From NCBI GenBank assembly GCA_021513695.1, contig CP084166.1, forward strand, positions 3,017,794-3,081,793: a stretch of 64,000 nt of DNA, given 5' to 3'. Shown one piece after another: positions 17,313 through 37,060 of the stretch. A program made the position numbers and the translations under genes. This DNA comes from Candidatus Heimdallarchaeum aukensis (GTDB taxonomy: Archaea; Asgardarchaeota; Heimdallarchaeia; Heimdallarchaeales; Heimdallarchaeaceae). Below the pieces are notes generated by a model. The model was not told the DNA's origin. It searched no databases and was given only the letters and a program-made list of their open reading frames with translations. The number at the start of each line of letters is the position of its first letter. Position 1 is the first letter of the stretch.

Positions 17313-17315
17313 TTT

Positions 17316-17717: not shown

Positions 17718-17822
17718 TTTTTTACCCCAGCTATTTCCGACGCTCTAAGTTATAAATCGATAATAATAAAAAAAGTTATGTATTGAATTTTTTTCTGAAA
17801 GTGAAACTTTTTCAGAATGTAA

Positions 17823-19322: not shown

Positions 19323-19361
19323 AGTTTTTTTTTTAAAAAAAGTATTAATATGTTTTTTGTG

Positions 19362-20594: not shown

Positions 20595-20702
20595 TTATTA
20601 TCTTCCCGTTTCAAAGAAAATACAGTTGTATTTATTTTTTCCTACAAAATGCATAAGTGCAGATATAAAAAAATTCAAATTTTGTGTTTAATTTTGAACA
20701 TA

Positions 20703-21341
20703 ATGCTAATAATTTTTGATTTAGATGGAACATTAGTTCAGAGTAATATTCTTTACTCTACAATAAAAAGTGAACTTAAAGACTTGCTAAAAAGTATAAT
20801 TGGTGAAGAATTATATTCTGAATTTGTTTCAATTCCAAGGTCAATTTTAGAAATATTAACCTTTATCTCAAAACATGATAATTCTGGCTTTTACAGCAAA
20901 AAAGCATGGGAGATAGTAGAAAAATACGAGATTAAAGGATATGAACATGCTACGATTCATGATGATGTTCTACCTACATTGAAGATTCTTAAAGAAAAGG
21001 GAGCAACTATTGCTATTTTAACAAATAATTCAAAGAAATTAACAGACTTTGCGATGAAACAGTTTAATTTGAATAAGTACATTGATTATGTTGTAACTAG
21101 AGACGATGTTGAAAAGGTTAAACCTGATCCTGAGGGCATTTATAAAATAATGAAAAAATTCAACAAAGATAAAGAAGAAACTCTTTTTATAGGCGACTCA
21201 TGGTTAGATGCTGAGTCTGCTTTTAATGCAGGAGTAAAGTTTGCTTACTTTGGAAAAGCAAATGAGGAGACAAGAGAAAAAAAGATACCAGCTAAAATTG
21301 AAATAAACTCTATTAGTGAAGTCTTAAATTTAAGTTTTTGA
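20703..21341 (+). CDS. HAD-superfamily hydrolase
   Basis: MLIIFDLDGTL motif I right at the chosen internal start. The ORF is open from 20649. GDS..D motif IV. Confidence 0.7.
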   Translation: MLIIFDLDGTLVQSNILYSTIKSELKDLLKSIIGEELYSEFVSIPRSILEILTFISKHDNSGFYSKKAWEIVEKYEIKGYEHATIHDDVLPTLKILKEKGATIAILTNNSKKLTDFAMKQFNLNKYIDYVVTRDDVEKVKPDPEGIYKIMKKFNKDKEETLFIGDSWLDAESAFNAGVKFAYFGKANEETREKKIPAKIEINSISEVLNLSF

Positions 21342-21390
21342 ACTTTTGACTATCCTTTTAAAAACAAATAAATAGTACTTTGAGATTAGT

Positions 21391-23199
21391 TTGTTGATTG
21401 AAATGAAACTTAGATTAATGTTTAGAGGAATTCTAACACTTACATTTTTGTGGGGATTAGTATTCGGATTAGTTTTAGCTATTGAAGCAGTTGTATATCT
21501 TTCAACAGATGGTTCAGTTACAGCTGCAGTATTATTCACTTATCTCCCAGTTGTAATCACTCTAGGAATTGTTTTTCTGCAATTTTTACTTTCACCATTC
21601 TTTATGGATTTGAACCTTCGTTGGTTATATAAAATGACTTGGATTAAGCCACAACAGCTTCCTCCCCATTTGGCCAAATTCATTGCTGAACAAGAAGCAA
21701 AACACGGTATATCAATCAAAAAGGTTGGAATGATTCATGACCAAAATCCCCAAGCTTTTACATATGGCCATTTCAAAAAGAATGCTCGTATAGTTCTTTC
21801 TGATGGAATACTAAATCTTCTTACTCCAGAAGAACAAGTTGCAGTAGTTGGGCATGAACTTGGACATATTGCTCACATGGATTTCTTATTCATGACAATA
21901 GCTGCTGCTGCTCCTGTTATTCTCTACACTTTTTATGCTTTTTCAAGAGGAGTTCTAAGAACAATGCGATATACTTCTAAAAGTGGAGGAAAAGATTCAG
22001 GAAAAACTGCTGCAGCTATAGGTCTCACAGCTTTTGTTTTTATGATTATAAGCTATTTGTTTTATATCATTAGTCAATTCTTAGTTCTCTTTTTAAGCAG
22101 AATACGTGAATACTATGCAGATAGTTTTTCCGCTGAAAACACTGAGAATCCTAAAGGTTTGTCGACAGCTTTAGTTAAAATAGCTTATGGAATGGTTCAA
22201 AGTCAAGCTGCCTATGCAGCACAAATGAATGACAAATCTGCTTCAATGAAGGGTAGAGTTAAAGCTTCTCAACGTTTTGGTTTTACAAACGCTGTTCGCA
22301 GTATGAATATCTTTGATGTCAAAGCAGCTCAAGGTTTAGTCATGTCTGCTTATGCTCAAACAGCTACTGCTGAAATAGAACCTGAGATGGTTGTTCGTGC
22401 TGCAGCTTGGGATTTAGAAAGTCCATGGGCTACTTTTCTTGAACTTCAAAGTACACATCCACTTGCAGCTAAAAGGTTACTGGCATTGGACGACATTGCT
22501 GAAGAAATGGGATTAAAACGCGCTTATCCAACTTTAGGAACTGATAAGATTCATGAAACTCTCTGGGATGAATTCTTAGTAGATGTATTTGTTTATTATG
22601 TTGTTCCTTCTTTATTGTTTATTCTTCCAGCATTAGGTTATCTAGTTATTATTGCTGAGATTAATCCACTTATTGGTGTAGGAGGAGGATTAGCTTTAGC
22701 TGCATTGTTGTGGTTATGGAGAATTAAAATTCGATATCCAAGAATCTCTCCTGATCTACTTCCAATTAACATTATGGATGCTGTTACAGATGTTTCCGAT
22801 AATGGATATGCCGAGGCATCACCCGTCAGAGGAAAACCAATTAAACTTGAAGGTTTAATAATCGGAAGAGGACAAGCAGGTTACTACTTCAGTGAAGATA
22901 TGGTTCTACAAGATTCAACAGGAATTATTACTTTAGATTACAATCCGGTCTTCAATTTCATGAGATGGATAACAGCTTTGTTCCGTGTTGAAAAGTTGAT
23001 TGGAACTAGAGTAGTAGTTTTAGGTTGGTACAGACGTTCACCAAAGCCATATGTGATGATAAAAAAGATGATCAAACCTGATGGAAGATCGATAGGTAGC
23101 AATTGGGATATAGCTAACTGGATGCTTGTTTTTGCTCTCCTTATAGGTGCAGTAATTTTTGCAGTTTTTGGTTTTGGAATGCCAGTTTTAGGTTTATGA
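21391..23199 (+). CDS. M48-family zinc metallopeptidase (HtpX-like) with a long C-terminal extension
   Basis: HELGHIAHMD (HExxH) flanked by TM helices, length 602 aa. Confidence 0.75.
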   Translation: MLIEMKLRLMFRGILTLTFLWGLVFGLVLAIEAVVYLSTDGSVTAAVLFTYLPVVITLGIVFLQFLLSPFFMDLNLRWLYKMTWIKPQQLPPHLAKFIAEQEAKHGISIKKVGMIHDQNPQAFTYGHFKKNARIVLSDGILNLLTPEEQVAVVGHELGHIAHMDFLFMTIAAAAPVILYTFYAFSRGVLRTMRYTSKSGGKDSGKTAAAIGLTAFVFMIISYLFYIISQFLVLFLSRIREYYADSFSAENTENPKGLSTALVKIAYGMVQSQAAYAAQMNDKSASMKGRVKASQRFGFTNAVRSMNIFDVKAAQGLVMSAYAQTATAEIEPEMVVRAAAWDLESPWATFLELQSTHPLAAKRLLALDDIAEEMGLKRAYPTLGTDKIHETLWDEFLVDVFVYYVVPSLLFILPALGYLVIIAEINPLIGVGGGLALAALLWLWRIKIRYPRISPDLLPINIMDAVTDVSDNGYAEASPVRGKPIKLEGLIIGRGQAGYYFSEDMVLQDSTGIITLDYNPVFNFMRWITALFRVEKLIGTRVVVLGWYRRSPKPYVMIKKMIKPDGRSIGSNWDIANWMLVFALLIGAVIFAVFGFGMPVLGL

Positions 23200-23329
23200 A
23201 TAATATAATCCTCTTTTTTTTTATTTTCTTTTTTTTGAAGTTTTTAAAGAATAATCAAATTAAGTTAGCACAAATAACAGCAAAGTTAAATATGACTACC
23301 TTTGAGAATAAAGTAAGATTGGTGAGATT

Positions 23330-24286
23330 ATGTCTGAGGATGAACAAAAAACTCAAGTTGAAGAAGAGAAAACTGAGGTAAAAGAAGAAAAAGAAGAAAC
23401 TCCCTTGGAAATGTACCAAAAAGCTGGAAAAGTAGCTCACGAAATTCTTCAAACACTTAAAGATATGGCTAAACCCGGAGTTAAAGCTCTAGATTTAAGT
23501 GAAAAAGCAGATGCAATGATAGCTGAAGCAGGAATGAAACCTGCATTTCCTCTAAATATAGCAATAAACAATCATGCTGCTCATTACACTTGTCCTTGGG
23601 AAGATGATTTGATTCTTCAAGAGGGAGATGTAGTAAAAATTGATGTTGGTGTTCATTATAAAGGTTTTATTGCAGATACAGCTTTAACTGTTGCTTTTGA
23701 TGATGTCCATAATGATTTAATTAAAGCAAGTAAAGAAGCAACTGAAACAGCCGTAAAAGTTATACGTGTAGGAAATTATACTGGTAAATTAGGAGATCTA
23801 ATTGAAAATATTATTGAAGGATACGGCTTCTCAACAGTAAAAGACTTGTCAGGCCATTTGCTTATGCCTTATCTTGTTCATGGTCCAAAAACTATTCCAA
23901 ATGTAAGTGGAAGAAAAGGTAACTTGATTTTACAAGATGAAGCTTATGCTATTGAAACCTTCGCAACAACAGGTGCAGGAGAATCAAAACCAGATAAAAC
24001 AAAGTTATATATTGTAAGGTTAGCAGAAGGAAGATTTCCACTAAGAACAAGAGCTGCAAAAGATGTTAGAAATCTTCTAGATAGAGAATATCATAGAATG
24101 CCTGTAGCAACAAGATGGATATATAAGGCCCTTGGTCCTGCTAAGGCAAAAATGGGTATTAGAGAATTAATTAATGTGGGAGCTTTATATCAATATCATG
24201 TGCTTTCTGATACTTCTGGATCTTTTGTATCACAGCATGAGCATACAGTTTACATGACAGAAGAAGGGCCAGTACAAACTACATAA
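23330..24286 (+). CDS. map: methionine aminopeptidase type 2-like protein (copy 1)
   Basis: Pita-bread fold motifs carrying the MetAP2 metal ligands: KIDVGVH, ADTALT, GHLL, AIETF. The acidic/lysine-rich N-terminal extension is reminiscent of eukaryotic MetAP2 and PA2G4. A GGTGA ribosome-binding site lies 5 nt upstream. Confidence 0.7.
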   Translation: MSEDEQKTQVEEEKTEVKEEKEETPLEMYQKAGKVAHEILQTLKDMAKPGVKALDLSEKADAMIAEAGMKPAFPLNIAINNHAAHYTCPWEDDLILQEGDVVKIDVGVHYKGFIADTALTVAFDDVHNDLIKASKEATETAVKVIRVGNYTGKLGDLIENIIEGYGFSTVKDLSGHLLMPYLVHGPKTIPNVSGRKGNLILQDEAYAIETFATTGAGESKPDKTKLYIVRLAEGRFPLRTRAAKDVRNLLDREYHRMPVATRWIYKALGPAKAKMGIRELINVGALYQYHVLSDTSGSFVSQHEHTVYMTEEGPVQTT

Positions 24287-24416
24287 TCCTTTTTTTATTT
24301 TACTGTTTATTTTTTGTTTTGAGAATAGTAATTTTGTATTTTCATTTAAAAAAATCATTTTTTAAGAACAATAAATCTTTAATATTGAAAAGTTGTAAAT
24401 GAATGTGTTGATATAA

Positions 24417-25639
24417 TTGACTTTACAGACAAGTGAATTCAAATTTATAATGTATGAACCATGTTTTAATAATTACGATATTGTGTATAACGAATATATG
24501 CTGGCTTATGAAGAATTTAAGAAACTAGGAGAAGAGATGTCAATTTTCGCGTTCTCTCTTACTTCTATGAAGGAATGCTCTATCTTATTAATGGTGACAA
24601 ATTCTTTTCTCAGAAGGAATACAAAAAAGCAAATGAAAACTATGAAGAAGCACAAAAATTAATTACTCGCTCTAGAGCATCAAGAGGAATTGAAAAAGAT
24701 ACTATCTGGCAAGAAATGGTTAAATGGATAGCATATTGCGAATCTTATACTAATCTTTCCAAGAGTTATTTAGTCAAAGATTTCTCAGAAAAAATTGAAC
24801 TATTAAAGAAAAGCAAGGCAGCAATTAAAGATTTTGTAGAAAAAAGGAAATATGATGAAAACATCATCTTGGATATCTATGCAAAAGCTAAAGAAAATTA
24901 TATCAAGTACATTTATTACATAAATTTAGCTCAAAAATATGAGAAAAACACAAGAATGCAGAAAAAAATACTCCTTAAAGCGAGAAGAAAGCTACTTTTA
25001 GCTCACTTTATTCTTAATCACTATGAAGAAGAAATAGATGATTTAGACTTTAAAATTGATGAGCTAACAAAGACACACATAGTTGAAAGAGCAGAAATGT
25101 ACTGGAACAAGGGAACTTTACTAATTTCTCAAAGTGACTTTATGAGTGCACACAAATATCTTCTTCTAGCTTCTCAGTACTATGAACGAGCAAGCAAAAT
25201 ATGTTCAGAATTTATTGAATTAAGATTATATTTAGCTCTTAGTAAAATAACAGAAAGTAGCGGTCTTGAAGCAAAAGCTAATGAACTTTACAGAAGGCAG
25301 GACAAGCCCCTAGAAGCCAGTAAACTGTTTGAAGAAGCATATGAAGTTGTAGACGAATCCCTCGGTTTACTAGCTACAATTCACAATGAAGTGTTAATAA
25401 ACAATATGACTGCACAAAGATCTTATTATGAAGCTTTAGCACTCGAAGCAAAAGGTATATCCCTCTTTGACGAAGAGAAATATAAAGAATCTATAGAAAT
25501 TTTTGAACAATCAATGCAAAAATTAGAAGAAACAGAACGCTTAGTAGTCGAAGGTAGTTCAGAGCATTTACAAGAGTACATTCGCTTAGCTAAGAATGAG
25601 ATTGAAGGTTATTTATCTATGGCAAAAACTATGCTTTAG
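24417..25639 (+). pseudogene. TPR-like helical-repeat protein gene, frameshifted (copy 1)
   Basis: Two overlapping ORFs (24417..24662 and 24575..25639) together equal the intact 407-aa ORF of copy 2. Copy 1 lacks one A in the GAGAA run near 24537. Confidence 0.6.
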
Positions 25640-25697
25640 TATCAAATTTTTCTTCAATCAATAATCTTTATTTATCACAATATAAACAATAAATGCA

Positions 25698-26393
25698 ATG
25701 CTGTTTGACGATTTTGAAATAAAGGAGTACTTGGAAAATTTTTTCTCAAAGAATCTATCTGCCAAAGATTATCCTGAACCCGACACTGATCTCGATCATA
25801 AATTAGTTTGGAATTACAGTGAAAATGGAGATGCTTTTTCAGTACTTCTTGATCCAATAAATGATGCTTACGAATACTTTGGAGTTACTGTAGGTGAGAT
25901 ATTTGCTCACCATCGATTCAAACCAATTGTTTGGCACTTGTATCTTTTTGGCAATAAAATAAAGAGCTTTGAATGGATTAAATTAAAAGATGGAACTGAT
26001 TATCTTATTAATGTTGGGACTTACTCTTTTATTTCTTATATCTACGATTTTAAAAGTGGGAAAAGGTTATACAGAAACCCAATAGAAGAGATAAAATCTC
26101 AAATATATTCACTTAACCTCAAGTATGATATATCTGTAAATGATGTAAATGAATTTGTAGAATATTCTTTTATTGAAGACTACAGGTGGGGAGAAGTTTC
26201 GAGAAACGCTATAATAGCTCTTATACTAGATAATTTCAATAAAGATAAAATAAATGTTAATGTTCTAGGATTAATTAATCGTGTTTTACACGAATATTCT
26301 AATTACGAATCAGACAAACAACTACTAGAAAGAGTGAAAAAAGGAGAATCACCTTTTGAACTAGGGACTATCTTTTATAACGATTTTATATAA
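25698..26393 (+). CDS. hypothetical protein (copy 1)
   Basis: 231-aa ORF, duplicated identically at 30554..31249. Confidence 0.4.
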   Translation: MLFDDFEIKEYLENFFSKNLSAKDYPEPDTDLDHKLVWNYSENGDAFSVLLDPINDAYEYFGVTVGEIFAHHRFKPIVWHLYLFGNKIKSFEWIKLKDGTDYLINVGTYSFISYIYDFKSGKRLYRNPIEEIKSQIYSLNLKYDISVNDVNEFVEYSFIEDYRWGEVSRNAIIALILDNFNKDKINVNVLGLINRVLHEYSNYESDKQLLERVKKGESPFELGTIFYNDFI

Positions 26394-26406
26394 AAAGAGA
26401 AAAAAT

Positions 26407-26706
26407 TTAACTCATTTTAAATTCTACACCGAATCCTCCATGAGGATAGTGCCAATCAACACTTCCGTGAGGACAAACAAGCCTACATGTTCCACATTCA
26501 ACACAAGGTGCATAATCAAACGTTACAGGTACATCTCCATCTTCAACTAGTTTATAACATTCTGCAGGGCAACCATATACACAGTCATATGTCTTACATT
26601 TAGTTTTGCATATCTCCTCGTTTATGGTAATGTGAGCAAAATTTTTGTCTGTAACATACTTTGTTAATGCAAGTTTTTCTTCAATTTTTATTGGATTTTC
26701 TACCAT
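26407..26706 (-). CDS. fixX: ferredoxin-like protein FixX (copy 1)
   Basis: 99 aa. A CVECGTCRLVCP cluster. Immediately downstream of fixC. Confidence 0.75.
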   Translation of the reverse strand: MVENPIKIEEKLALTKYVTDKNFAHITINEEICKTKCKTYDCVYGCPAECYKLVEDGDVPVTFDYAPCVECGTCRLVCPHGSVDWHYPHGGFGVEFKMS

Positions 26707-26718
26707 TCTTTTCTCCTC

Positions 26719-28032
26719 CTAAATAGATCTTAAAGCAGCAAAAGCATCTCCCATGAGCTTAAACAGCTTACCTTTCTTTAGGAAGTGCTTAATAGCTGTA
26801 GGAACAATTCTTTTTCTAGGCTCTCCAGTGTTGTGTAAAAGTTGATACATCAAAGAATTAAGCAGTTCTGGATAAACATTGAAAATTCTCTCTCTCTCCA
26901 AGAACTTTGCAGCTCGTTTAAATCTCTTCAAATCTTGCAAAACAAAACTATCTCGCAATAATTTCAAATAAATCTTTGTTCCTTCTGCAGAATAATCATT
27001 TGTTGTTAAAGCTTCTTTTGCTGCTAACCCTGCTAGTCTTCCAGACTCTAAAGCAAAATTCATACCTTCTATGTACAAACCTGCGTTAAGAACCATACCA
27101 GCAGCATCACCAGCAATCATCACACCGTTCCCATATAACTTAGGCATGTGTTTGTATCCCCCTTCAGGAATAGCGTGAGCAGAGTATTCAACCATTTTAG
27201 CATCTTTAAGGAGCTTTTGGATGTAGGGGTGTTTCTTAAAATCTTCAAAAGCATCAATCGCTCTGATCTTTTTTTGTATAAGTTTTTTCATGTTTAAGAT
27301 CAATCCAAAAGAAAGTGTTTCTTTATTTGTATAGAAGAATCCTCCTCCTGGAATTCCATGAGTATAACCTAGAAACTCGTTACTTATTCCTTCATTTCCA
27401 TTAAGATGAAATCTCTCTTCAATTATTTCTTTCTTTAATTCATATGTTTCTTTCATTCCTACAGCGTAGTGTGAAGGTGAAGGCTTTTTAGCAAGTTTAG
27501 CTTTTTCTGCTAATAAAGTAACAGCTCCTTCAGCAATTATAGTGAGTTTAGCTTTTAATTCATCTTCTCCAGATTCTATTCCTATAATTTGATTATCCTT
27601 CCAAATGAAATCTTCAGCTACAGTGTTGTCGAGAATAAAAGCTCCTGCTTCTTCTGCTTTTTGGGCCAACCATCTGTCAAATTTTGGACGAATAACAGTT
27701 ACACCATTGTAAGGTGGTTCGGCAAAATCTTGTAAATCAATATCAATAGTCATTGCTCGCTTTTCAGACAAAAGAGTAATCTTTTTAGTTGTTAAATATC
27801 TCTCAATAGCATCTTCTTCCCAATAGTTAGGAACGATTTTATTTAGTACTGGGCCGTAAAGAGCTCCTCCACTTACATTTTTTGCACCAGGATACTGTCC
27901 TCTTTCAATAATAGCAACCTCTTTTCCTTCCTTTGCTAAAGTTAATGCTGCAGAAGAACCAGCTAGTCCAGCTCCAACTATAATTACATCAAAATCGTAT
28001 TCTACAGTCATAAAAAAATGTTTGATTTTCAA
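26719..28032 (-). CDS. fixC: FAD-dependent oxidoreductase FixC (ETF-quinone oxidoreductase-like), copy 1
   Basis: DVIIVGAGLAGSSAAL Rossmann motif, length 437 aa, adjacent to fixX. Confidence 0.8.
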   Translation of the reverse strand: MKIKHFFMTVEYDFDVIIVGAGLAGSSAALTLAKEGKEVAIIERGQYPGAKNVSGGALYGPVLNKIVPNYWEEDAIERYLTTKKITLLSEKRAMTIDIDLQDFAEPPYNGVTVIRPKFDRWLAQKAEEAGAFILDNTVAEDFIWKDNQIIGIESGEDELKAKLTIIAEGAVTLLAEKAKLAKKPSPSHYAVGMKETYELKKEIIEERFHLNGNEGISNEFLGYTHGIPGGGFFYTNKETLSFGLILNMKKLIQKKIRAIDAFEDFKKHPYIQKLLKDAKMVEYSAHAIPEGGYKHMPKLYGNGVMIAGDAAGMVLNAGLYIEGMNFALESGRLAGLAAKEALTTNDYSAEGTKIYLKLLRDSFVLQDLKRFKRAAKFLERERIFNVYPELLNSLMYQLLHNTGEPRKRIVPTAIKHFLKKGKLFKLMGDAFAALRSI

Positions 28033-28184
28033 TATAAAATGTTTATGTGAAAATATAAAAAAGAAAATAGAAAAGAATGAAAAATTATTTTATCTTTTTT
28101 AAAGAATAATCAAATTAAGTTAGCACAAATAACAGCAAAGTTAAATATGACTACCTTTGAGAATAAAGTAAGATTGGTGAGATT

Positions 28185-29141
28185 ATGTCTGAGGATGAAC
28201 AAAAAACTCAAGTTGAAGAAGAGAAAACTGAGGTAAAAGAAGAAAAAGAAGAAACTCCCTTGGAAATGTACCAAAAAGCTGGAAAAGTAGCTCACGAAAT
28301 TCTTCAAACACTTAAAGATATGGCTAAACCCGGAGTTAAAGCTCTAGATTTAAGTGAAAAAGCAGATGCAATGATAGCTGAAGCAGGAATGAAACCTGCA
28401 TTTCCTCTAAATATAGCAATAAACAATCATGCTGCTCATTACACTTGTCCTTGGGAAGATGATTTGATTCTTCAAGAGGGAGATGTAGTAAAAATTGATG
28501 TTGGTGTTCATTATAAAGGTTTTATTGCAGATACAGCTTTAACTGTTGCTTTTGATGATGTCCATAATGATTTAATTAAAGCAAGTAAAGAAGCAACTGA
28601 AACAGCCGTAAAAGTTATACGTGTAGGAAATTATACTGGTAAATTAGGAGATCTAATTGAAAATATTATTGAAGGATACGGCTTCTCAACAGTAAAAGAC
28701 TTGTCAGGCCATTTGCTTATGCCTTATCTTGTTCATGGTCCAAAAACTATTCCAAATGTAAGTGGAAGAAAAGGTAACTTGATTTTACAAGATGAAGCTT
28801 ATGCTATTGAAACCTTCGCAACAACAGGTGCAGGAGAATCAAAACCAGATAAAACAAAGTTATATATTGTAAGGTTAGCAGAAGGAAGATTTCCACTAAG
28901 AACAAGAGCTGCAAAAGATGTTAGAAATCTTCTAGATAGAGAATATCATAGAATGCCTGTAGCAACAAGATGGATATATAAGGCCCTTGGTCCTGCTAAG
29001 GCAAAAATGGGTATTAGAGAATTAATTAATGTGGGAGCTTTATATCAATATCATGTGCTTTCTGATACTTCTGGATCTTTTGTATCACAGCATGAGCATA
29101 CAGTTTACATGACAGAAGAAGGGCCAGTACAAACTACATAA
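28185..29141 (+). CDS. map: methionine aminopeptidase type 2-like protein (copy 2)
   Basis: Identical to 23330..24286. Confidence 0.7.
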   Translation: MSEDEQKTQVEEEKTEVKEEKEETPLEMYQKAGKVAHEILQTLKDMAKPGVKALDLSEKADAMIAEAGMKPAFPLNIAINNHAAHYTCPWEDDLILQEGDVVKIDVGVHYKGFIADTALTVAFDDVHNDLIKASKEATETAVKVIRVGNYTGKLGDLIENIIEGYGFSTVKDLSGHLLMPYLVHGPKTIPNVSGRKGNLILQDEAYAIETFATTGAGESKPDKTKLYIVRLAEGRFPLRTRAAKDVRNLLDREYHRMPVATRWIYKALGPAKAKMGIRELINVGALYQYHVLSDTSGSFVSQHEHTVYMTEEGPVQTT

Positions 29142-29271
29142 TCCTTTTTTTATTTTACTGTTTATTTTTTGTTTTGAGAATAGTAATTTTGTATTTTCAT
29201 TTAAAAAAATCATTTTTTAAGAACAATAAATCTTTAATATTGAAAAGTTGTAAATGAATGTGTTGATATAA

Positions 29272-30495
29272 TTGACTTTACAGACAAGTGAATTCAAATT
29301 TATAATGTATGAACCATGTTTTAATAATTACGATATTGTGTATAACGAATATATGCTGGCTTATGAAGAATTTAAGAAACTAGGAGAAGAGAATGTCAAT
29401 TTTCGCGTTCTCTCTTACTTCTATGAAGGAATGCTCTATCTTATTAATGGTGACAAATTCTTTTCTCAGAAGGAATACAAAAAAGCAAATGAAAACTATG
29501 AAGAAGCACAAAAATTAATTACTCGCTCTAGAGCATCAAGAGGAATTGAAAAAGATACTATCTGGCAAGAAATGGTTAAATGGATAGCATATTGCGAATC
29601 TTATACTAATCTTTCCAAGAGTTATTTAGTCAAAGATTTCTCAGAAAAAATTGAACTATTAAAGAAAAGCAAGGCAGCAATTAAAGATTTTGTAGAAAAA
29701 AGGAAATATGATGAAAACATCATCTTGGATATCTATGCAAAAGCTAAAGAAAATTATATCAAGTACATTTATTACATAAATTTAGCTCAAAAATATGAGA
29801 AAAACACAAGAATGCAGAAAAAAATACTCCTTAAAGCGAGAAGAAAGCTACTTTTAGCTCACTTTATTCTTAATCACTATGAAGAAGAAATAGATGATTT
29901 AGACTTTAAAATTGATGAGCTAACAAAGACACACATAGTTGAAAGAGCAGAAATGTACTGGAACAAGGGAACTTTACTAATTTCTCAAAGTGACTTTATG
30001 AGTGCACACAAATATCTTCTTCTAGCTTCTCAGTACTATGAACGAGCAAGCAAAATATGTTCAGAATTTATTGAATTAAGATTATATTTAGCTCTTAGTA
30101 AAATAACAGAAAGTAGCGGTCTTGAAGCAAAAGCTAATGAACTTTACAGAAGGCAGGACAAGCCCCTAGAAGCCAGTAAACTGTTTGAAGAAGCATATGA
30201 AGTTGTAGACGAATCCCTCGGTTTACTAGCTACAATTCACAATGAAGTGTTAATAAACAATATGACTGCACAAAGATCTTATTATGAAGCTTTAGCACTC
30301 GAAGCAAAAGGTATATCCCTCTTTGACGAAGAGAAATATAAAGAATCTATAGAAATTTTTGAACAATCAATGCAAAAATTAGAAGAAACAGAACGCTTAG
30401 TAGTCGAAGGTAGTTCAGAGCATTTACAAGAGTACATTCGCTTAGCTAAGAATGAGATTGAAGGTTATTTATCTATGGCAAAAACTATGCTTTAG
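29272..30495 (+). CDS. TPR-like helical-repeat protein (intact copy)
   Basis: 407-aa all-helical ORF with repeated hydrophobic/aromatic heptad-like patterns (e.g. YEEAQKLI, YERASKIC, YYEALALEAKG). Confidence 0.5.
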   Translation: MTLQTSEFKFIMYEPCFNNYDIVYNEYMLAYEEFKKLGEENVNFRVLSYFYEGMLYLINGDKFFSQKEYKKANENYEEAQKLITRSRASRGIEKDTIWQEMVKWIAYCESYTNLSKSYLVKDFSEKIELLKKSKAAIKDFVEKRKYDENIILDIYAKAKENYIKYIYYINLAQKYEKNTRMQKKILLKARRKLLLAHFILNHYEEEIDDLDFKIDELTKTHIVERAEMYWNKGTLLISQSDFMSAHKYLLLASQYYERASKICSEFIELRLYLALSKITESSGLEAKANELYRRQDKPLEASKLFEEAYEVVDESLGLLATIHNEVLINNMTAQRSYYEALALEAKGISLFDEEKYKESIEIFEQSMQKLEETERLVVEGSSEHLQEYIRLAKNEIEGYLSMAKTML

Positions 30496-30553
30496 TATCA
30501 AATTTTTCTTCAATCAATAATCTTTATTTATCACAATATAAACAATAAATGCA

Positions 30554-31249
30554 ATGCTGTTTGACGATTTTGAAATAAAGGAGTACTTGGAAAATTTTTT
30601 CTCAAAGAATCTATCTGCCAAAGATTATCCTGAACCCGACACTGATCTCGATCATAAATTAGTTTGGAATTACAGTGAAAATGGAGATGCTTTTTCAGTA
30701 CTTCTTGATCCAATAAATGATGCTTACGAATACTTTGGAGTTACTGTAGGTGAGATATTTGCTCACCATCGATTCAAACCAATTGTTTGGCACTTGTATC
30801 TTTTTGGCAATAAAATAAAGAGCTTTGAATGGATTAAATTAAAAGATGGAACTGATTATCTTATTAATGTTGGGACTTACTCTTTTATTTCTTATATCTA
30901 CGATTTTAAAAGTGGGAAAAGGTTATACAGAAACCCAATAGAAGAGATAAAATCTCAAATATATTCACTTAACCTCAAGTATGATATATCTGTAAATGAT
31001 GTAAATGAATTTGTAGAATATTCTTTTATTGAAGACTACAGGTGGGGAGAAGTTTCGAGAAACGCTATAATAGCTCTTATACTAGATAATTTCAATAAAG
31101 ATAAAATAAATGTTAATGTTCTAGGATTAATTAATCGTGTTTTACACGAATATTCTAATTACGAATCAGACAAACAACTACTAGAAAGAGTGAAAAAAGG
31201 AGAATCACCTTTTGAACTAGGGACTATCTTTTATAACGATTTTATATAA
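30554..31249 (+). CDS. hypothetical protein (copy 2)
   Basis: Identical to 25698..26393. Confidence 0.4.
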   Translation: MLFDDFEIKEYLENFFSKNLSAKDYPEPDTDLDHKLVWNYSENGDAFSVLLDPINDAYEYFGVTVGEIFAHHRFKPIVWHLYLFGNKIKSFEWIKLKDGTDYLINVGTYSFISYIYDFKSGKRLYRNPIEEIKSQIYSLNLKYDISVNDVNEFVEYSFIEDYRWGEVSRNAIIALILDNFNKDKINVNVLGLINRVLHEYSNYESDKQLLERVKKGESPFELGTIFYNDFI

Positions 31250-31262
31250 AAAGAGAAAAAAT

Positions 31263-31562
31263 TTAACTCATTTTAAATTCTACACCGAATCCTCCATGAG
31301 GATAGTGCCAATCAACACTTCCGTGAGGACAAACAAGCCTACATGTTCCACATTCAACACAAGGTGCATAATCAAACGTTACAGGTACATCTCCATCTTC
31401 AACTAGTTTATAACATTCTGCAGGGCAACCATATACACAGTCATATGTCTTACATTTAGTTTTGCATATCTCCTCGTTTATGGTAATGTGAGCAAAATTT
31501 TTGTCTGTAACATACTTTGTTAATGCAAGTTTTTCTTCAATTTTTATTGGATTTTCTACCAT
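31263..31562 (-). CDS. fixX: ferredoxin-like protein FixX (copy 2)
   Basis: Identical to copy 1. Confidence 0.75.
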   Translation of the reverse strand: MVENPIKIEEKLALTKYVTDKNFAHITINEEICKTKCKTYDCVYGCPAECYKLVEDGDVPVTFDYAPCVECGTCRLVCPHGSVDWHYPHGGFGVEFKMS

Positions 31563-31574
31563 TCTTTTCTCCTC

Positions 31575-32888
31575 CTAAATAGATCTTAAAGCAGCAAAAG
31601 CATCTCCCATGAGCTTAAACAGCTTACCTTTCTTTAGGAAGTGCTTAATAGCTGTAGGAACAATTCTTTTTCTAGGCTCTCCAGTGTTGTGTAAAAGTTG
31701 ATACATCAAAGAATTAAGCAGTTCTGGATAAACATTGAAAATTCTCTCTCTCTCCAAGAACTTTGCAGCTCGTTTAAATCTCTTCAAATCTTGCAAAACA
31801 AAACTATCTCGCAATAATTTCAAATAAATCTTTGTTCCTTCTGCAGAATAATCATTTGTTGTTAAAGCTTCTTTTGCTGCTAACCCTGCTAGTCTTCCAG
31901 ACTCTAAAGCAAAATTCATACCTTCTATGTACAAACCTGCGTTAAGAACCATACCAGCAGCATCACCAGCAATCATCACACCGTTCCCATATAACTTAGG
32001 CATGTGTTTGTATCCCCCTTCAGGAATAGCGTGAGCAGAGTATTCAACCATTTTAGCATCTTTAAGGAGCTTTTGGATGTAGGGGTGTTTCTTAAAATCT
32101 TCAAAAGCATCAATCGCTCTGATCTTTTTTTGTATAAGTTTTTTCATGTTTAAGATCAATCCAAAAGAAAGTGTTTCTTTATTTGTATAGAAGAATCCTC
32201 CTCCTGGAATTCCATGAGTATAACCTAGAAACTCGTTACTTATTCCTTCATTTCCATTAAGATGAAATCTCTCTTCAATTATTTCTTTCTTTAATTCATA
32301 TGTTTCTTTCATTCCTACAGCGTAGTGTGAAGGTGAAGGCTTTTTAGCAAGTTTAGCTTTTTCTGCTAATAAAGTAACAGCTCCTTCAGCAATTATAGTG
32401 AGTTTAGCTTTTAATTCATCTTCTCCAGATTCTATTCCTATAATTTGATTATCCTTCCAAATGAAATCTTCAGCTACAGTGTTGTCGAGAATAAAAGCTC
32501 CTGCTTCTTCTGCTTTTTGGGCCAACCATCTGTCAAATTTTGGACGAATAACAGTTACACCATTGTAAGGTGGTTCGGCAAAATCTTGTAAATCAATATC
32601 AATAGTCATTGCTCGCTTTTCAGACAAAAGAGTAATCTTTTTAGTTGTTAAATATCTCTCAATAGCATCTTCTTCCCAATAGTTAGGAACGATTTTATTT
32701 AGTACTGGGCCGTAAAGAGCTCCTCCACTTACATTTTTTGCACCAGGATACTGTCCTCTTTCAATAATAGCAACCTCTTTTCCTTCCTTTGCTAAAGTTA
32801 ATGCTGCAGAAGAACCAGCTAGTCCAGCTCCAACTATAATTACATCAAAATCGTATTCTACAGTCATAAAAAAATGTTTGATTTTCAA
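31575..32888 (-). CDS. fixC: FAD-dependent oxidoreductase FixC, copy 2 (contiguous with etfBA)
   Basis: Identical to copy 1. Directly downstream of etfA. Confidence 0.8.
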   Translation of the reverse strand: MKIKHFFMTVEYDFDVIIVGAGLAGSSAALTLAKEGKEVAIIERGQYPGAKNVSGGALYGPVLNKIVPNYWEEDAIERYLTTKKITLLSEKRAMTIDIDLQDFAEPPYNGVTVIRPKFDRWLAQKAEEAGAFILDNTVAEDFIWKDNQIIGIESGEDELKAKLTIIAEGAVTLLAEKAKLAKKPSPSHYAVGMKETYELKKEIIEERFHLNGNEGISNEFLGYTHGIPGGGFFYTNKETLSFGLILNMKKLIQKKIRAIDAFEDFKKHPYIQKLLKDAKMVEYSAHAIPEGGYKHMPKLYGNGVMIAGDAAGMVLNAGLYIEGMNFALESGRLAGLAAKEALTTNDYSAEGTKIYLKLLRDSFVLQDLKRFKRAAKFLERERIFNVYPELLNSLMYQLLHNTGEPRKRIVPTAIKHFLKKGKLFKLMGDAFAALRSI

Positions 32889-32940
32889 TATAAAATGTTT
32901 ATGTGAAAATATAAAAAAGAAAATAGAAAAGAATGAAAAA

Positions 32941-33915
32941 TTATTTTATCTTTTCTTTTAAAATAGGAAGAATTTGATGAAGATCTCCAACTATTCCATA
33001 ATCACAATATTTGAATATAGAAGCTCTTTCGTCAGTGTTTATTGCTATCAAGGTCTTGGCTTTAACTCCACAGATATGTTGAGGTGCACCACTAATTCCT
33101 GCGGCAATATACAAATCAGGGGAAACTGACTGACCAGTTTGGCCTATTTCATAAGTTTCTTCTATCCAATGTAGATCTGTGCAGGCTCTTGTTGCACCCA
33201 TTTCTCCTCCAAGCAAGTCAGCTAGTTCTTTAATAATAGCGAATTTGTCTTTTCCACCTACACCCCTTCCTCCAGCAACAATTATCTTTGCATCTTTAAG
33301 ATTAACTGTCTTCTTCGCTTTAAGAATCTCTACACTTTTAACAATTCTATCTTTTTCATCGAATGAAACAGTTAATTTTTCTATTTCTGGTTCTTGTCCT
33401 TCTGGATTCTCATCTATAAAGAAAGCTCCTGCACGAGTTGTGATGAATATTTTTTCTCCTTTAGATTTCATTTTTACCATAGCTTGGTCGTCTCTAACTG
33501 GAGTAATAGCTATAAGATCATCACCCTCTAAAATCAAGTCAGTTACTCTTTCAAGACAAGTAGTGTTATAATGAACAGCTAATCTGGGAATGAGGTCTTC
33601 TACATTAACTAGTCCTCCACCAATAACTACTTTAGGGTCAGCAGTTTTGATAATCTCTAACATAGCTTTTACATAAGCTCGAGAAAGGTAAGTGCTCAAT
33701 TCAGGAGCTTCTACTACAAAGACTTTTTTAGCTCCGTGCTTACCTAAAGTGGAAATCCATTCATCTTTAGCTTGTTCACAGAGGAGAGCAGCAGAAACAT
33801 CTCCTAAACTAGTAAAGTTTTTGACTTTATTTAGAACTCCTAAAACGTTTTCTTCTATTTCTCCATCTCTGATTAAAGCAAAAACAAGTATTCCAGTCAT
33901 TTTATGCACCCCCAA
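32941..33915 (-). CDS. etfA: electron transfer flavoprotein alpha subunit (FixB/EtfA)
   Basis: EtfA FAD-binding C-terminal motifs (IAINTDE, PQHICG-like), length 324 aa. Confidence 0.85.
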   Translation of the reverse strand: MGVHKMTGILVFALIRDGEIEENVLGVLNKVKNFTSLGDVSAALLCEQAKDEWISTLGKHGAKKVFVVEAPELSTYLSRAYVKAMLEIIKTADPKVVIGGGLVNVEDLIPRLAVHYNTTCLERVTDLILEGDDLIAITPVRDDQAMVKMKSKGEKIFITTRAGAFFIDENPEGQEPEIEKLTVSFDEKDRIVKSVEILKAKKTVNLKDAKIIVAGGRGVGGKDKFAIIKELADLLGGEMGATRACTDLHWIEETYEIGQTGQSVSPDLYIAAGISGAPQHICGVKAKTLIAINTDERASIFKYCDYGIVGDLHQILPILKEKIK

Positions 33916-34717
33916 GTTTAATACCGTCTTCTTTCATCTTCTCAAGAAGCTTGTCAACCATTTCCTCAGGTTCGCCTTCTGAAATAATGAAGCTTTCTTT
34001 CTCAATGACAATATTCTCCAATGAAAGAACCTCTAGATCAGAGATGTCTTGTCCTACATCATTAGCAGAAAGACCTAAATCTTCAAGTGTCCATGCAGGT
34101 ATTTGAGCTCTTTTCGACATCATAATTCCACGCATTGAGGTATAACGAGGAATAAAATACTCAGAGTCAGAAATACTGAACAAAGACTTACCTAAAGGAA
34201 CTTGAACAATCTCTTTTCCTCCTTCTAGCACTCTAGAAACAATAAAGGCATCATCCTTCTTTTCAAGTTTTTCAACATAAAGAACAGAAGGAATATCTAA
34301 AAGCTCTGCAAGTATAGGCGCTTCAGCGTAGGATGAAGTAGGCATTACTTGTCCACCAATCATAACTAAATCATACTCTCCAATTTTCTCAAGAACTTTA
34401 TGGTAAACTTTAGCCATAATAAGAGGGTCATGACTAAAAATGTCTTTAGAATTGACAACAATTCCAGAGTTACAACCCATGGCTATTGCTTCTCTAACTG
34501 CTTTCTCAGGCTTCAAATCTCCAACACAAACAGCAGTTACAGTTGCTCCTTCACTGTCTTTGAATTTTAAAGCTCCTTCAATGGCGTTCTTGTCAATAGG
34601 GTTGATTATAAGATCATCAGCATTAATTTTTGATTCATCAAAATAGTCTATTCCCTCAAGATTGACCTGAGGATCAAGAATCTGACGTATAAACACAACG
34701 ATATTCATATTAATCAA
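33902..34717 (-). CDS. etfB: electron transfer flavoprotein beta subunit (FixA/EtfB)
   Basis: MNIVVFIRQILDP N-terminus typical of EtfB, length 271 aa. Overlaps the etfA start. Confidence 0.85.
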   Translation of the reverse strand: MINMNIVVFIRQILDPQVNLEGIDYFDESKINADDLIINPIDKNAIEGALKFKDSEGATVTAVCVGDLKPEKAVREAIAMGCNSGIVVNSKDIFSHDPLIMAKVYHKVLEKIGEYDLVMIGGQVMPTSSYAEAPILAELLDIPSVLYVEKLEKKDDAFIVSRVLEGGKEIVQVPLGKSLFSISDSEYFIPRYTSMRGIMMSKRAQIPAWTLEDLGLSANDVGQDISDLEVLSLENIVIEKESFIISEGEPEEMVDKLLEKMKEDGIKLGGA

Positions 34718-34944
34718 AAAATGAACAAATAAGAATTACAAAAATCTTTCTCTCCGTTAATTTCAGCAAAAGTGAAAAAAGTACCTTTATAAGCTGAAAA
34801 ATCTTTTAAAACTAATAGAATAGAAGAGACAATAAATTTTCATTGTTTAAATTACAATTTTTTATAGCATTCTTTCTTTATTGTTCTTTGTTAAATATAT
34901 TTAGTAAATCTTTTTAAATTGAAAGAATAGTTCTCTTAGATTTT

Positions 34945-36000
34945 ATGAATATCGACAGAAATGAAATTATAAAGATGCAAGAAAAGCTAAGCAATCTTAT
35001 TGGTTGCCCAGGGCATGAAGAAGAAGTTGCAGAATTCATATTATCACAATTAAATGATTGTGTAGATCGAGCTTGGATTGACCCTCTTGGTAACGTATTA
35101 GCTATTAAAAAAGGAACAGTAGAAAATGGTATGAAAATTCTTTTAGATGCTCACATGGATGAAGTAGGATTTATGATTTCGCACATTGAAGAAAAAGGTT
35201 TTCTAAGAATTGCTCCACTTGGTGGAATAGATAAAAGAGTTATGCTTGGCTCTTTACTTCAATTTCAGACAGATAACAATGAAAAAATAGTTGGGATAGT
35301 TGGCTCTCATCCTCCTCATATAACAAAAAGTGAAGAAAGAGAAAGAGTTCCTGAAATATCAGAAATGTTTGTTGACATTGGTTACCAATCGCGAGAAGAA
35401 GTACTAGCAAAAGGATTACATGTAGGAAGTGTTGGAACTTTCTATACCAAATTTGAACAATTAGATGATGAAACTGTAATAGGTAAAGCATTTGATGATA
35501 GAACAGCTTGTAATGTCTTGTTACAAGTTTTAAAAGCTCTTAAAGATGTCGAGCATCCCCATACAATTTTAGCAGTATTTGCAGTGCAAGAAGAAGTAGG
35601 AGGAAGAGGAGCGACAGTAGGAGCTTTTGAACTTCAACCTACAATGGCTTTAGCTTTAGAAAATACTATCGCAAGTGACGTGGTAGGAGTCCCCACTAAC
35701 AAAGTAGTTACAAGTATTGGAAAGGGACCAGCAGTAACTGCTGCTGATAGATCACTAATAACACCAAAAAAAGTCCTAAATCGTATTAAACAAGCCGCAG
35801 AAAAAGATGACATTAAAACACAGTATAAAATGCCCATTTTTGGAGGATCAGATGGAGGAAGAATAGCTATCACTCGATCTGGAGTACCAACAGGTGTGGT
35901 TAGTGTTCCCTGTCGATATATTCACGGGCCTGTAGCTATGTTAAAAATAAAAGATATAGAAGAAACTATAAAACTAGTTTACAACTTTTGCACAATTTAA
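34945..36000 (+). CDS. M42-family aminopeptidase (TET/FrvX-like)
   Basis: HMDEVGFMISHIEEKGFLRIAPLGG and other M42 motifs, length 351 aa. Confidence 0.8.
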   Translation: MNIDRNEIIKMQEKLSNLIGCPGHEEEVAEFILSQLNDCVDRAWIDPLGNVLAIKKGTVENGMKILLDAHMDEVGFMISHIEEKGFLRIAPLGGIDKRVMLGSLLQFQTDNNEKIVGIVGSHPPHITKSEERERVPEISEMFVDIGYQSREEVLAKGLHVGSVGTFYTKFEQLDDETVIGKAFDDRTACNVLLQVLKALKDVEHPHTILAVFAVQEEVGGRGATVGAFELQPTMALALENTIASDVVGVPTNKVVTSIGKGPAVTAADRSLITPKKVLNRIKQAAEKDDIKTQYKMPIFGGSDGGRIAITRSGVPTGVVSVPCRYIHGPVAMLKIKDIEETIKLVYNFCTI

Positions 36001-36032
36001 AGAAAAAGTAAAAATTTCTTTTTCTTTTTTTC

Positions 36033-36599
36033 TTATTTATACAATTCTAAATATTCATCAAACAGGATATCCATTAGAATTATGTCATAGTATTTGCCTT
36101 CATGAAAGCGAGCCTTTCTTCTTCTACCAATGTGTTTGAAACCTAATTTCTCATAAACGTGGACAGCTCGTTTATTAAACTCAAAAACCTCGAGTTCTAT
36201 TCTGTTTAAGTTGAGAATAAGAAAACCAAATTTCAAAATACATTTTGTAGCATCAGAGCCATATCCTTTGTTATGATTAGCAGGATTGTGAATAGCTATT
36301 CCAAAAACACAAGTCCTATTTATCCAGTCAATATTCATTAAAGAAACGCTACCAAGAAATTCATTTTTTTCCTTCTCGACAATAGCAAATGTGAAGGATG
36401 AACGACGATTAGCATCACGATAAAGGCTTTGAATCCATTCTTCTTCTTGTGTTGAACTGTGTGGAATAGGATGACCAAGGTATTGCCTAGTTTCATAAGT
36501 ATTCCAATATTTCATTATGTCTTTAAGATCTGATTTTTCAACAGGTCGAAGTATAACTTTTTCACCTATGAATGGTGAACCAAAGTCTTTTGATGTCAT
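36033..36599 (-). CDS. GNAT-family N-acetyltransferase (RimJ/RimL-like)
   Basis: 188 aa. The acetyl-CoA binding region GYGSDATK follows the pattern of the GNAT R/Q-x-x-G-x-G/A motif. Confidence 0.7.
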   Translation of the reverse strand: MTSKDFGSPFIGEKVILRPVEKSDLKDIMKYWNTYETRQYLGHPIPHSSTQEEEWIQSLYRDANRRSSFTFAIVEKEKNEFLGSVSLMNIDWINRTCVFGIAIHNPANHNKGYGSDATKCILKFGFLILNLNRIELEVFEFNKRAVHVYEKLGFKHIGRRRKARFHEGKYYDIILMDILFDEYLELYK

Positions 36600-36759
36600 A
36601 ATAGTCTGAAATTCTTCAAAGTTTAAAAATTTGTCTAATCAAACCTTATTTATAAACAATTACAGTTTAAAAAAAGAAAAAAAGAAAAAAAGTTATTTGA
36701 TATGAGCTGGTCTATATCCAGCATGTGCAAGAATACTTGTTGCTTTACCTATGATTTAC

Positions 36760-37060
36760 TTTTTTACATAAAGTTTTTCGCACTCTGTCTTGCAAGAGAA
36801 AAAACTAAAGGAAGTTTAATCTCTTGAACTCAACCAAGCCATACAATGCCGTGAAGGGGTTGAGACAGACATCATACACGAATCGTGGGAATCATAAAGA
36901 AGAAAAGAGTTGTAAGTTCTTTTCTTCACTCCACGAGAGACAAAAAAGAAAGAATTACCCACTAAAAGAGAGAAGTAATTACTTTCCTTTTTGTCTACTG
37001 GGACTGCAACCAATGGCTGAGCCCTAGACAAACAGTGAAATGAGTGAGACTGTATTTCTG
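36760..37060 (-). ncRNA. candidate omega-RNA (reRNA) of TnpB, overlapping the tnpB 3' end and the right end of the IS
   Basis: This region is distinctly GC-richer than its surroundings and has overlapping ORFs on both strands (36816..37031), typical of a structured RNA. Its position relative to tnpB matches known omega-RNAs. Extent is not determined. Confidence 0.3.

Follow-up and report, generated by a model that had tools for sequence, protein, structure and literature searches.

The genome deposited for Candidatus Heimdallarchaeum aukensis carries a head-to-tail repeat of five genes that is probably a false or a sub-clonal duplication of 4.86 kb. An artefact of amplification and scaffolding is the likeliest explanation of the second copy, which would otherwise be at most a minority variant. 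On this reading the population's consensus genome would have a single unit, in the order HtpX - MetAP2 - TPR - hypothetical - fixX - fixC - etfA, and the second copy would depend on a unit-end-to-unit-start junction that is confined to the Nanopore data. Coordinates (Table 1) are those of the 64-kb stretch of DNA that was analysed (the window).

Direct sequence comparison of the two copies bears out what an earlier note on this DNA had reported, a near-identical tandem duplication of five genes: there are two adjacent head-to-tail copies and one novel junction. The maximal repeat is 4859 nt long (23241-28098 and 28096-32954), and its copies overlap by 3 nt. The unit ends in four T and starts with five; at the junction these runs appear as C, six T and AAAG, in agreement with the note's placement of the junction in short T-runs with microhomology. 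The left boundary lies 42 nt past the stop codon of the HtpX-like gene and the right boundary falls within etfA, 11-14 nt from its 3' end; copy 1 was said to keep about 60 bp of the etfA-fixC spacer, which is roughly so (the entire spacer is retained, together with the last four etfA codons). The window holds no further repeat of at least 60 nt, direct or inverted, and a duplication mediated by an insertion sequence or long repeat was rejected: neither an IS nor a repeat of that length flanks the unit. In pattern searches the junction was unique to the window (which served as positive control and was recovered); it was not found in 47 fetched loci or, as an exact or a tolerant gapped pattern, in JGI metagenome contigs.

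Table 1. The repeated unit, its genes and its flanks, in window coordinates
Feature	Coordinates	Strand	Remarks
Copy 1 of repeated unit	23241..28095		4855 nt; differs from copy 2 only in lacking one A at 24537
Copy 2 of repeated unit	28096..32951		4856 nt; matches the one unit of Logan contigs L001 and L002 at 100%
Novel unit-to-unit junction, C-TTTTTT-AAAG	28094..28104		TTT microhomology at 28096-28098
1-nt deletion site, copy 1	24537..24538	+	A, against AA at 29392-29393; frameshifts the TPR-like gene
M48/HtpX-like protease, left flank	21403..23199	+	
Type II methionyl aminopeptidase, copy 1	23330..24286	+	318 aa; the two MetAP copies are UJG40821.1 / UJG40826.1
TPR-like gene, copy 1	24417..25639	+	split by the frameshift into ORFs of 81 and 354 aa; deposited as K9W45_13420
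Hypothetical protein, copy 1	25698..26393	+	231 aa; no Pfam match
fixX-like ferredoxin, copy 1	26407..26706	-	99 aa
fixC-like ETF-QO-type flavoprotein, copy 1	26719..28011	-	430 aa from ATG; ORF reaches TTG at 28032
Type II methionyl aminopeptidase, copy 2	28185..29141	+	
TPR-like gene, copy 2	29272..30495	+	intact, 407 aa
Hypothetical protein, copy 2	30554..31249	+	231 aa
fixX-like, copy 2	31263..31562	-	
fixC-like, copy 2	31575..32867	-	copy adjoining etfA
etfA (32941-33900) and etfB (33902-34708), right flank	32941..34708	-	

Aligned with each other, the copies differ by a single 1-nt indel and no substitution: copy 1 reads GAAGAGA-TG, with a single A at 24537, and copy 2 reads GAAGAGAATG. 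The single-nucleotide difference of the earlier note thus stands as to its being one position, but it is a frameshifting deletion, and it is confined to the deposited copy 1, in which it splits the TPR-like gene. All other sequences have the intact version of this gene (the contigs of both read sets described below, the JGI strains and H. endolithica), and the 354-aa frameshifted product has no match in any contig on record.

The names that had been given to the five genes (map-like, TPR-like, hypothetical, fixX and fixC) are upheld by profile matches. The aminopeptidase matches TIGR00501 at 278.9 bits (NCBIfam cutoff 222.65), which makes it type II; the TPR protein matches TPR_12, the FixX-like protein Fer4_ETF_QO, and the FixC-like protein DAO and ETFQO_UQ-bd. 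With its right flank the unit encodes an EtfAB-FixCX set: ETF beta, ETF alpha (ETF and ETF_alpha), an ETF-QO-type flavoprotein and a Fer4_ETF_QO ferredoxin. In having etfB, etfA, fixC and fixX co-oriented, with a 73-nt etfA-fixC spacer and domains for all four subunits, it is like the FixABCX-type clusters; the likeness is one of gene content, from which a bifurcating function can be no more than predicted. It departs from that pattern of clustering in H. endolithica, which lacks the fixCX pair at the same locus; a scan of genome contigs with FixC returned distant homologues only (at most 43% identity), and no close synteny. On the flanking DNA, the nearest transposase-like gene to the unit is a TnpB (36995-38452). 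The final 64 kb of the 3,081,793-bp record make up the window, which ends with tRNA-Gly(CCC), as in the genome paper's rotation.

Comparison with related genomes for a single-copy arrangement, which the earlier note had proposed as a check, finds it throughout: in the same strain (contig L001, see below), in the natural relatives of five JGI metagenomes (among them contigs L032 and L033, 96-99.9% identical) and in the sister species H. endolithica (L037, 89%). One copy is accordingly the ancestral arrangement among these close relatives.

The way in which the deposited genome was made bears directly on its second copy. It was assembled from Illumina PE150 reads with metaSPAdes, scaffolded twice by LRScaf on Nanopore reads, and polished with Pilon at 346x (Wu et al. 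2022, PMC8813620). DNA being scarce, that used for Nanopore sequencing was pre-amplified with the REPLI-g MDA kit, and the resulting reads were used only for LRScaf scaffolding (PMC8813620). A single H. aukensis DNA extract, FW4588, is listed, from which Nanopore run 1 was an MDA and PCR-free library and run 2 an MDA and PCR library (PMC8813620, Supplementary Table 6); the high-yield Nanopore run had PCR on top of phi29 MDA. There is no mention of the duplication in the genome paper or its supplements (PMC8813620). The authors' primers for PCR and Sanger sequencing (of the end join and of a 1-kb gap) have no match in the window at up to three mismatches; their verification therefore leaves the repeat region uncovered.

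Independent assemblies of the project's runs are provided by Logan (k=31, singleton k-mers dropped, Minia3 simplification, each 31-mer distinct within an accession); the platform of each run was judged by its errors and by the sample table of the paper. The exact MetAP gene is carried by SRR15988954 and SRR15988958 only. In the first of these, which is Illumina-like, contigs L001 (13,243 nt) and L042 overlap by exactly k-1 = 30 nt and match the window at 100.000% over 6602-18730 and 18701-36798, 25 kb in all. In L001, HtpX, one unit and etfA-etfB-M42 follow each other without a break at 23241 or 32954. Since 31-mers are distinct in Logan, a junction at flank-like coverage would force contig breaks at both boundaries; by this contig-graph proxy, the unamplified DNA has no junction at genomic coverage. 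SRR15988954 is likely to be the data set used for polishing and assembly, because there is one extract, only two runs have the exact MetAP gene, and SRR15988958 disagrees with the deposited sequence at homopolymers.

That disagreement is seen in contig L030 of SRR15988958, which has seven single-base deletions relative to the window in 7.3 kb, all of them in homopolymers. None of the seven is common to the natural JGI strains, so they look like systematic errors of the Nanopore type; their being real strain variants was rejected on the same ground. L030 extends exactly 30 nt into the unit, to 23270 (a k-1 overlap with it), and a second contig, L002 (4859 nt), coincides to the base with the maximal repeat at 28096-32954. 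Neither a right-flank contig, sought via EtfA, EtfB and M42, nor a left neighbour of L030 was found in this run. A co-occurring variant strain was considered as the cause of the boundary breaks and rejected: a stretch of 12-15 nt by the left boundary sets the JGI strains apart from the window, but they show no variation at the right boundary and have about 2% SNPs across the unit, and consequently cannot yield a perfect 4859-nt contig that ends at the limits of the repeat. The second branch at these graph boundaries is presumably the repeat junction itself. Judged by the contig graphs, the junction appears to be present in amplified long reads, and absent or rare in unamplified DNA.

The most likely origin of the second copy is a chimera of MDA or PCR carried into the scaffold, to which we would give an even chance. 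The events could be these: 1) In a direct-type template switch, a displaced 3' end (...ATCTTTT) would have re-primed 4.86 kb upstream on TTTTTAAAG. 2) The chimera would have been amplified clonally, the DNA input being very low. 3) LRScaf would have taken it as a true link between Illumina contigs. 4) Pilon would have been unable to remove the extra copy since either one is an equally good target for short reads. We infer both that the junction formed in vitro, not in a minority of cells, and the route by which the scaffolder placed the unit twice.

Among MDA chimeras, over 70% of junctions have a priming overlap of 2-21 nt; the events are intramolecular and span a chimeric distance that is usually below 10 kb (PMC1855051, PMC9984789); here the overlap is the 3-nt TTT and the distance 4,856 nt. 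The likeness to direct-type chimeras (Lasken & Stockwell 2007, PMC1855051; PMC9984789) extends to amplified DNA, to AT-rich points on the same strand and, by the contig-graph proxy, to a junction that is absent or rare in the unamplified library. MDA also preceded the reads that appear to contain the junction (PMC8813620 methods; SRR15988958 is taken as Nanopore from its homopolymer deletions), and assembly has been reported to suffer from the chimeric and concatemeric reads that MDA gives in combination with ONT sequencing (PMC12225698). There are differences: more than 85% of known chimeras are inverted, the direct type making up about 15% (PMC1855051), and chimeras are normally unique, while here clonal amplification is required for one chimera to reach multiple reads and to affect the scaffolding as well as a k-mer graph. 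A second likeness is to the false duplications of assemblies that are hybrid or scaffolded with long reads: a near-perfect duplicate with one leftover indel, single-copy in the short-read-only assembly. In such assemblies a residual indel survives polishing because short reads prefer the perfect copy. The present repeat differs from them in its clean junction, which has neither Ns nor a k-mer-sized overlap.

Three further points weigh against a chimera. If the same strain was sequenced from a different sample in SRR15988954, the single-copy path of that run is uninformative about FW4588. A scaffolder that links contigs should not insert a copy inside a contig spanning HtpX, unit and etfA, so the metaSPAdes graph may branch at the ends of the unit; the Illumina data would then contain some junction reads, and the duplication would be a real minority variant. 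And the 1-nt deletion in copy 1 is unexplained by double placement of a contig followed by Pilon, but would be natural with two physical copies.

How probable is it, then, that the duplication is real? A tandem amplification (or excised circle) of the MetAP2-TPR-FixCX segment, days to months old, that would have arisen during the nine-month ethane/sulfate enrichment, be present in some or all cells and already have lost one TPR copy to the frameshift, falls somewhat short of an even chance. Its sub-clonal form, in which a minority of cells would have the tandem duplication, or an excised 4.86-kb circle would have been favoured by phi29 rolling-circle amplification, is in itself rather unlikely. 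Slippage or unequal sister exchange at TTT would have generated the junction, MDA and PCR would have over-represented it, and the scaffold would have fixed the minority form. Prokaryotic populations commonly harbour tandem duplications at microhomologies as unstable polymorphisms, and the repeat looks the part: it is head-to-tail with a single 3-nt T-run junction, its endpoints are AT-rich and lie in intergenic or gene-end DNA, there is no IS or long repeat at its ends, and its ancestral state is single-copy. Minority status would fit a junction in SRR15988958 together with an unbranched graph in SRR15988954, as Minia-type simplification drops low-coverage connections; a low-coverage junction edge could likewise break metaSPAdes contigs at the unit ends and lead to two LRScaf copies, and the A-deletion could be a true mutation on the duplicated haplotype. 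Against this, the frameshift allele is in no recorded contig, and the junction is missing from five natural JGI metagenomes with close strains. For the circle in particular, dominance should erase the link from HtpX to the unit, yet L030 keeps its k-1 overlap with the unit.

Fixation of the duplication (two copies in every genome of the extract, predating no point substitution, with one TPR gene frameshifted since) is quite improbable. The repeat is, to be sure, present in a deposited, Pilon-polished and circularised genome, the Nanopore-like graph breaks at its exact boundaries, and a copy-specific frameshift is to be expected of a duplicate that is free to decay; the retained spacer upstream of fixC also has TATA-like AT-rich motifs, possible promoter elements that count for little in a genome of 31% GC. 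But the fixed form of a microhomology-mediated tandem duplication needs a junction at genomic coverage, and the Illumina-like graph is unbranched: L001 passes both boundaries, which is impossible at k=31 if the junction has the coverage of the flanks. That there is only one DNA extract, and that SRR15988954 is likely its polishing data set, also speaks against fixation.

A pure error of scaffolding or merging, with no junction-bearing molecule behind it (LRScaf joining two overlapping contigs, for example), is very improbable. False tandem duplications classically come from contig ends that overlap, and LRScaf does fuse contigs at a negative estimated gap, but plain concatenation of maximal repeats would leave nine T at the junction where six are observed, and the breaks of the SRR15988958 Logan assembly at the exact boundaries, with a k-1 overlap on the left, indicate that the reads themselves contain another path into the unit. 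An old duplication homogenised by gene conversion, which would account for the near-identity of the copies and for nothing else, is effectively excluded: the identical strain in L001, the JGI strains and H. endolithica have one copy each, the junction is found nowhere else, and no related strain or species tested shares the duplication. The earlier note had offered a recent event, ongoing gene conversion and an assembly artefact side by side; conversion falls with the single-copy relatives, and an artefact, or at least a duplication that is not fixed, is the best supported of the options, given the unbranched L001, the boundary breaks in SRR15988958 and the MDA history of the Nanopore DNA.

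The repeat deserves a curation flag, as this is one of the few circularised Heimdallarchaeial references and is widely used in eukaryogenesis comparisons. A false copy would add five gene models, among them a spurious "pseudogenised" TPR gene, and would inflate the counts of MetAP2 and FixCX paralogues. It would also be a concrete case of MDA-amplified long reads, used for scaffolding only, writing a chimera into a "complete" genome. The doubled dosage of fixCX and the detachment of its first copy from the etfBA promoter follow only if the duplication is real; in that event FixCX and MetAP2 would both be doubled, and copy-1 fixCX might be driven by a promoter in the retained etfA-fixC spacer. 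One can think of a real duplication as an ordinary microhomology-mediated tandem event, of modest interest owing to the organism alone, or as a rare direct view of the dynamics of structural variants, and possibly of selection for FixCX or MetAP dosage, in a Heimdallarchaeial population.

The near-identical 4.86-kb tandem repeat to which the earlier note drew attention is present in the deposited sequence, as direct comparison of its copies confirms, and profile searches of the encoded proteins return the same five genes per unit that were listed there (see the table). The maximal repeat is 4859 nt long (23241-28098 and 28096-32954), and 3 nt (TTT) are thus common to both copies at the junction: the unit ends in ...ATCTTTT and begins with TTTTTAAAG..., and the join between copies reads ATC-TTTTTT-AAAG. 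The copies had been said to differ by a single nucleotide. The count stands, in that only one position is affected; the class is that of an indel, with no substitution: a single A at 24537 in copy 1 versus AA in copy 2 (29392-29393). In copy 1 the indel breaks the TPR-like gene up, leaving ORFs of 81 and 354 aa (the latter on deposit as K9W45_13420); the copy 2 ORF is intact (407 aa). The two MetAP copies are on deposit as UJG40821.1 and UJG40826.1, within a record of 3,081,793 bp (exact-sequence look-up). The archaeal type of the MetAP, like the intein-bearing archaeal LonB, accords with an archaeal source. The right unit end sits 11-14 nt within the 3' end of etfA, so that copy 1 retains the complete etfA-fixC spacer; TATA-like AT-rich motifs lie in it ~25-30 nt upstream of the fixC ATG, which is weak evidence in a genome of 31% GC. 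No further direct or inverted repeats of at least 60 nt were found within the 64-kb window.

Features of the repeat, its flanks and other loci in the window
Feature	Position	Strand	Size or evidence	Remarks
Copy 1	23241-28095		4855 nt	direct sequence comparison
Copy 2	28096-32951		4856 nt	head to tail with copy 1; direct sequence comparison
Type II methionyl aminopeptidase (MetAP)	both copies		TIGR00501, 278.9 bits (cutoff 222.65)	
TPR-like protein	both copies		TPR_12 domain	
Hypothetical protein	both copies		231 aa	no Pfam match
FixX-like ferredoxin	both copies		Fer4_ETF_QO	
FixC-like flavoprotein	both copies		ETF-QO-type	
M48/HtpX-like protease	left flank of repeat			
etfA-etfB, then M42 peptidase	right flank of repeat			
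TnpB-like RNA-guided-endonuclease-family ORF	36995-38452	-	485 aa	score below NCBIfam cutoff
Archaeal LonB with intein, first ORF	52255-54372	+		LonB N-part plus intein N-terminal and RtcB-intein-like sequence
Archaeal LonB with intein, second ORF	54366-55757	+		~41 aa, then LonB C-part
tRNA-Gly(CCC)	63927-64000	-		very end of window

For the H. aukensis genome, metaSPAdes contigs were built from Illumina PE150 reads and then joined with Nanopore reads in two rounds of LRScaf scaffolding; closure and Pilon polishing at 346x followed (Wu et al. 2022, PMC8813620). Because DNA was scarce, that used for the Nanopore libraries was pre-amplified by phi29 multiple displacement amplification (MDA; REPLI-g kit) (PMC8813620). 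According to Supplementary Table 6 of the same paper, a single DNA extract (FW4588, from incubation DRS71) was used, with one Illumina PE library and two MinION runs: MDA followed by a PCR-free library, with low yield (run 1), and MDA followed by a PCR library, with high yield (run 2). The Illumina-first route was taken where Nanopore reads were few or short (PMC8813620), and reads long enough to cover two 4.86-kb units together with their flanks were therefore probably scarce. LRScaf takes its links from long-read alignments, and merges contigs or sets gaps between them by estimated distance (PMC6902338). The duplication is not mentioned in the genome paper (PMC8813620), and the sites of its authors' two PCR/Sanger checks were not found in the 64-kb window. 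(The genome was rotated to end at tRNA-Gly(CCC), which is also the integration site of provirus HeimV1 in the sister species (PMC8813620); the tRNA gene at the end of the window matches that rotation point and identifies the window as the final 64 kb.)

Logan builds k=31 unitigs for each SRA run, leaves out k-mers that occur only once and uses Minia3 for graph simplification; each 31-mer is distinct within an accession (PMC12424806). Tandem repeats therefore always collapse in Logan, and a junction present at real coverage forces contig breaks at both unit ends. Two contigs of SRR15988954, a run of the genome project, match the window at 100.000% identity: L042 (window 6602-18730) and L001 (18701-36798, less one unit). 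They overlap each other by exactly 30 nt, that is, k-1. L001 carries, in order, glycosyltransferase, HtpX, a single unit whose TPR allele is intact, etfA, etfB, M42 and acetyltransferase, and stops at the edge of a TnpB element; it is continuous across both unit boundaries, which, for a k=31 contig of this run, is a proxy for the absence or rarity of the junction. In SRR15988958, contig L030 terminates at 23270, exactly 30 nt inside the unit, and contig L002 (4859 nt) is base-for-base the maximal repeat 28096-32954. Our reading of these ends is that, in the long-read graph, a further path enters the unit and a further path leaves it, which would be the unit-to-unit junction. What sets L030 apart from the window is seven single-base deletions, each within a homopolymer of 5-9 nt and none common to the natural variant strains of the JGI comparison; they look like systematic errors of the Nanopore type. 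Perfect agreement with the Pilon-polished sequence suggests that SRR15988954 is the unamplified Illumina library; SRR15988958 is probably the Nanopore run of high yield (MDA+PCR).

Other features of these assemblies may be recorded here. The Illumina-like L001 stops at 36798, just short of the TnpB-like ORF, as expected for a repeated IS element. Where L042 and L001 meet, the graph branches within an FGGY kinase gene (18701-18730); this stretch is no repeat within the window and is crossed by L030, and either a strain variant or a repeat outside the window could account for the branch. A 1.4-kb contig of SRR15988959, a third run of the project (L043; window 16275-17640), is 100% identical to the window, including an A8 run that is miscalled in SRR15988958.

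A search of related genomes for a single-copy arrangement had been proposed, and that is the arrangement found. Five JGI metagenomes with strains 96-99.9% identical were compared: a contig from HtpX to etfB (L032) and another from MetAP to past M42 (L033) each contain one unit, and the Ca. H. endolithica locus (L037, CP084167; ~89% identical) has one MetAP-TPR-hypothetical block. The junction is absent from all 47 fetched loci and from the JGI metagenome contigs, whether sought exactly or with a gapped pattern that tolerates differences; as a positive control, the window itself matched. The intact AA allele is present in every relative compared and in both Logan read-set assemblies; among the sequences compared, the TPR frameshift is confined to copy 1 of the deposited genome.

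The H. endolithica locus is without fixX-fixC (L037 13122-15595, approximately window 26443-32897): their place is taken by ~2.5 kb of other sequence, in which two ORFs of 188 and 409 aa lack Pfam matches, and MetAP-TPR-hypothetical and etfA-etfB are kept on either side. Natural JGI strains (L032, L047) depart from the window by a 12-15-nt patch (AGATGTTATCGTAATAATAATC in place of GAAGTTTTTAAAGAATAATC) in the HtpX-MetAP intergenic region (window ~23237-23250), coinciding with the left boundary of the repeat. Identity of the JGI strains to the window is mosaic, 99.5-99.9% up to ~22145 and 96-98% beyond it, a pattern that suggests recombination between strains; one of them has a 17-nt deletion in HtpX. 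Elsewhere in the window, the LonB gene is split into two overlapping ORFs, and the ~41-aa start of the second looks like the intein C-terminal block. The C-terminal piece is a separate 460-aa gene in relatives too; instead of a frameshift, the arrangement may represent a split intein of natural origin.

How did the second copy originate? The answer that we favor, and to which we give an even chance, is that a chimera generated in vitro in phi29/PCR-amplified DNA was carried into the scaffold as a second copy. The junction appears to be prominent among the long reads, which came from phi29/PCR-amplified DNA, and to be rare or lacking in DNA that was not amplified. MDA chimeras are typically intramolecular, with a chimeric distance <10 kb and a priming overlap of 2-21 nt in >70% of junctions (PMC1855051, PMC9984789), and MDA combined with ONT sequencing yields chimeric and concatemeric reads that upset assemblies (PMC12225698). 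The repeat junction has these hallmarks (intramolecular origin, distance below 10 kb, short priming overlap) and belongs to the rarer direct type.

The main rival, possible but doubtful, is a real, sub-clonal duplication, or an excised circle, over-represented by amplification. Two points favor it. A link-only scaffolder should have no means of doubling a stretch within a contiguous Illumina contig, which may hint at a low-coverage junction edge in the metaSPAdes graph, and double placement of one contig leaves the copy-specific 1-nt deletion unexplained. A real and fixed duplication is improbable: it is hard to square with the unbranched L001, and retains weight mainly through uncertainty about the identity of the runs. 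A mere concatenation error, with no read that bears the junction, is very unlikely, since it predicts 9 T at the junction (6 are observed) and does not account for the breaks in the SRR15988958 graph. Homogenization of an old duplication by gene conversion, which the earlier note had entertained as a source of the near-identity, is effectively ruled out, since a 100%-identical strain has just one copy.

The biological reading, a duplication that changes gene dosage, probably does not hold for the consensus genome. If the duplication were real, it would be of an ordinary kind, a tandem duplication mediated by microhomology: MetAP2, FixC and FixX would be doubled, one TPR copy would already be inactivated, and copy-1 fixCX would be parted from etfBA, facing copy-2 MetAP across a 152-nt chimeric intergenic region. 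The best use of the finding is as a curation flag for the H. aukensis reference genome.
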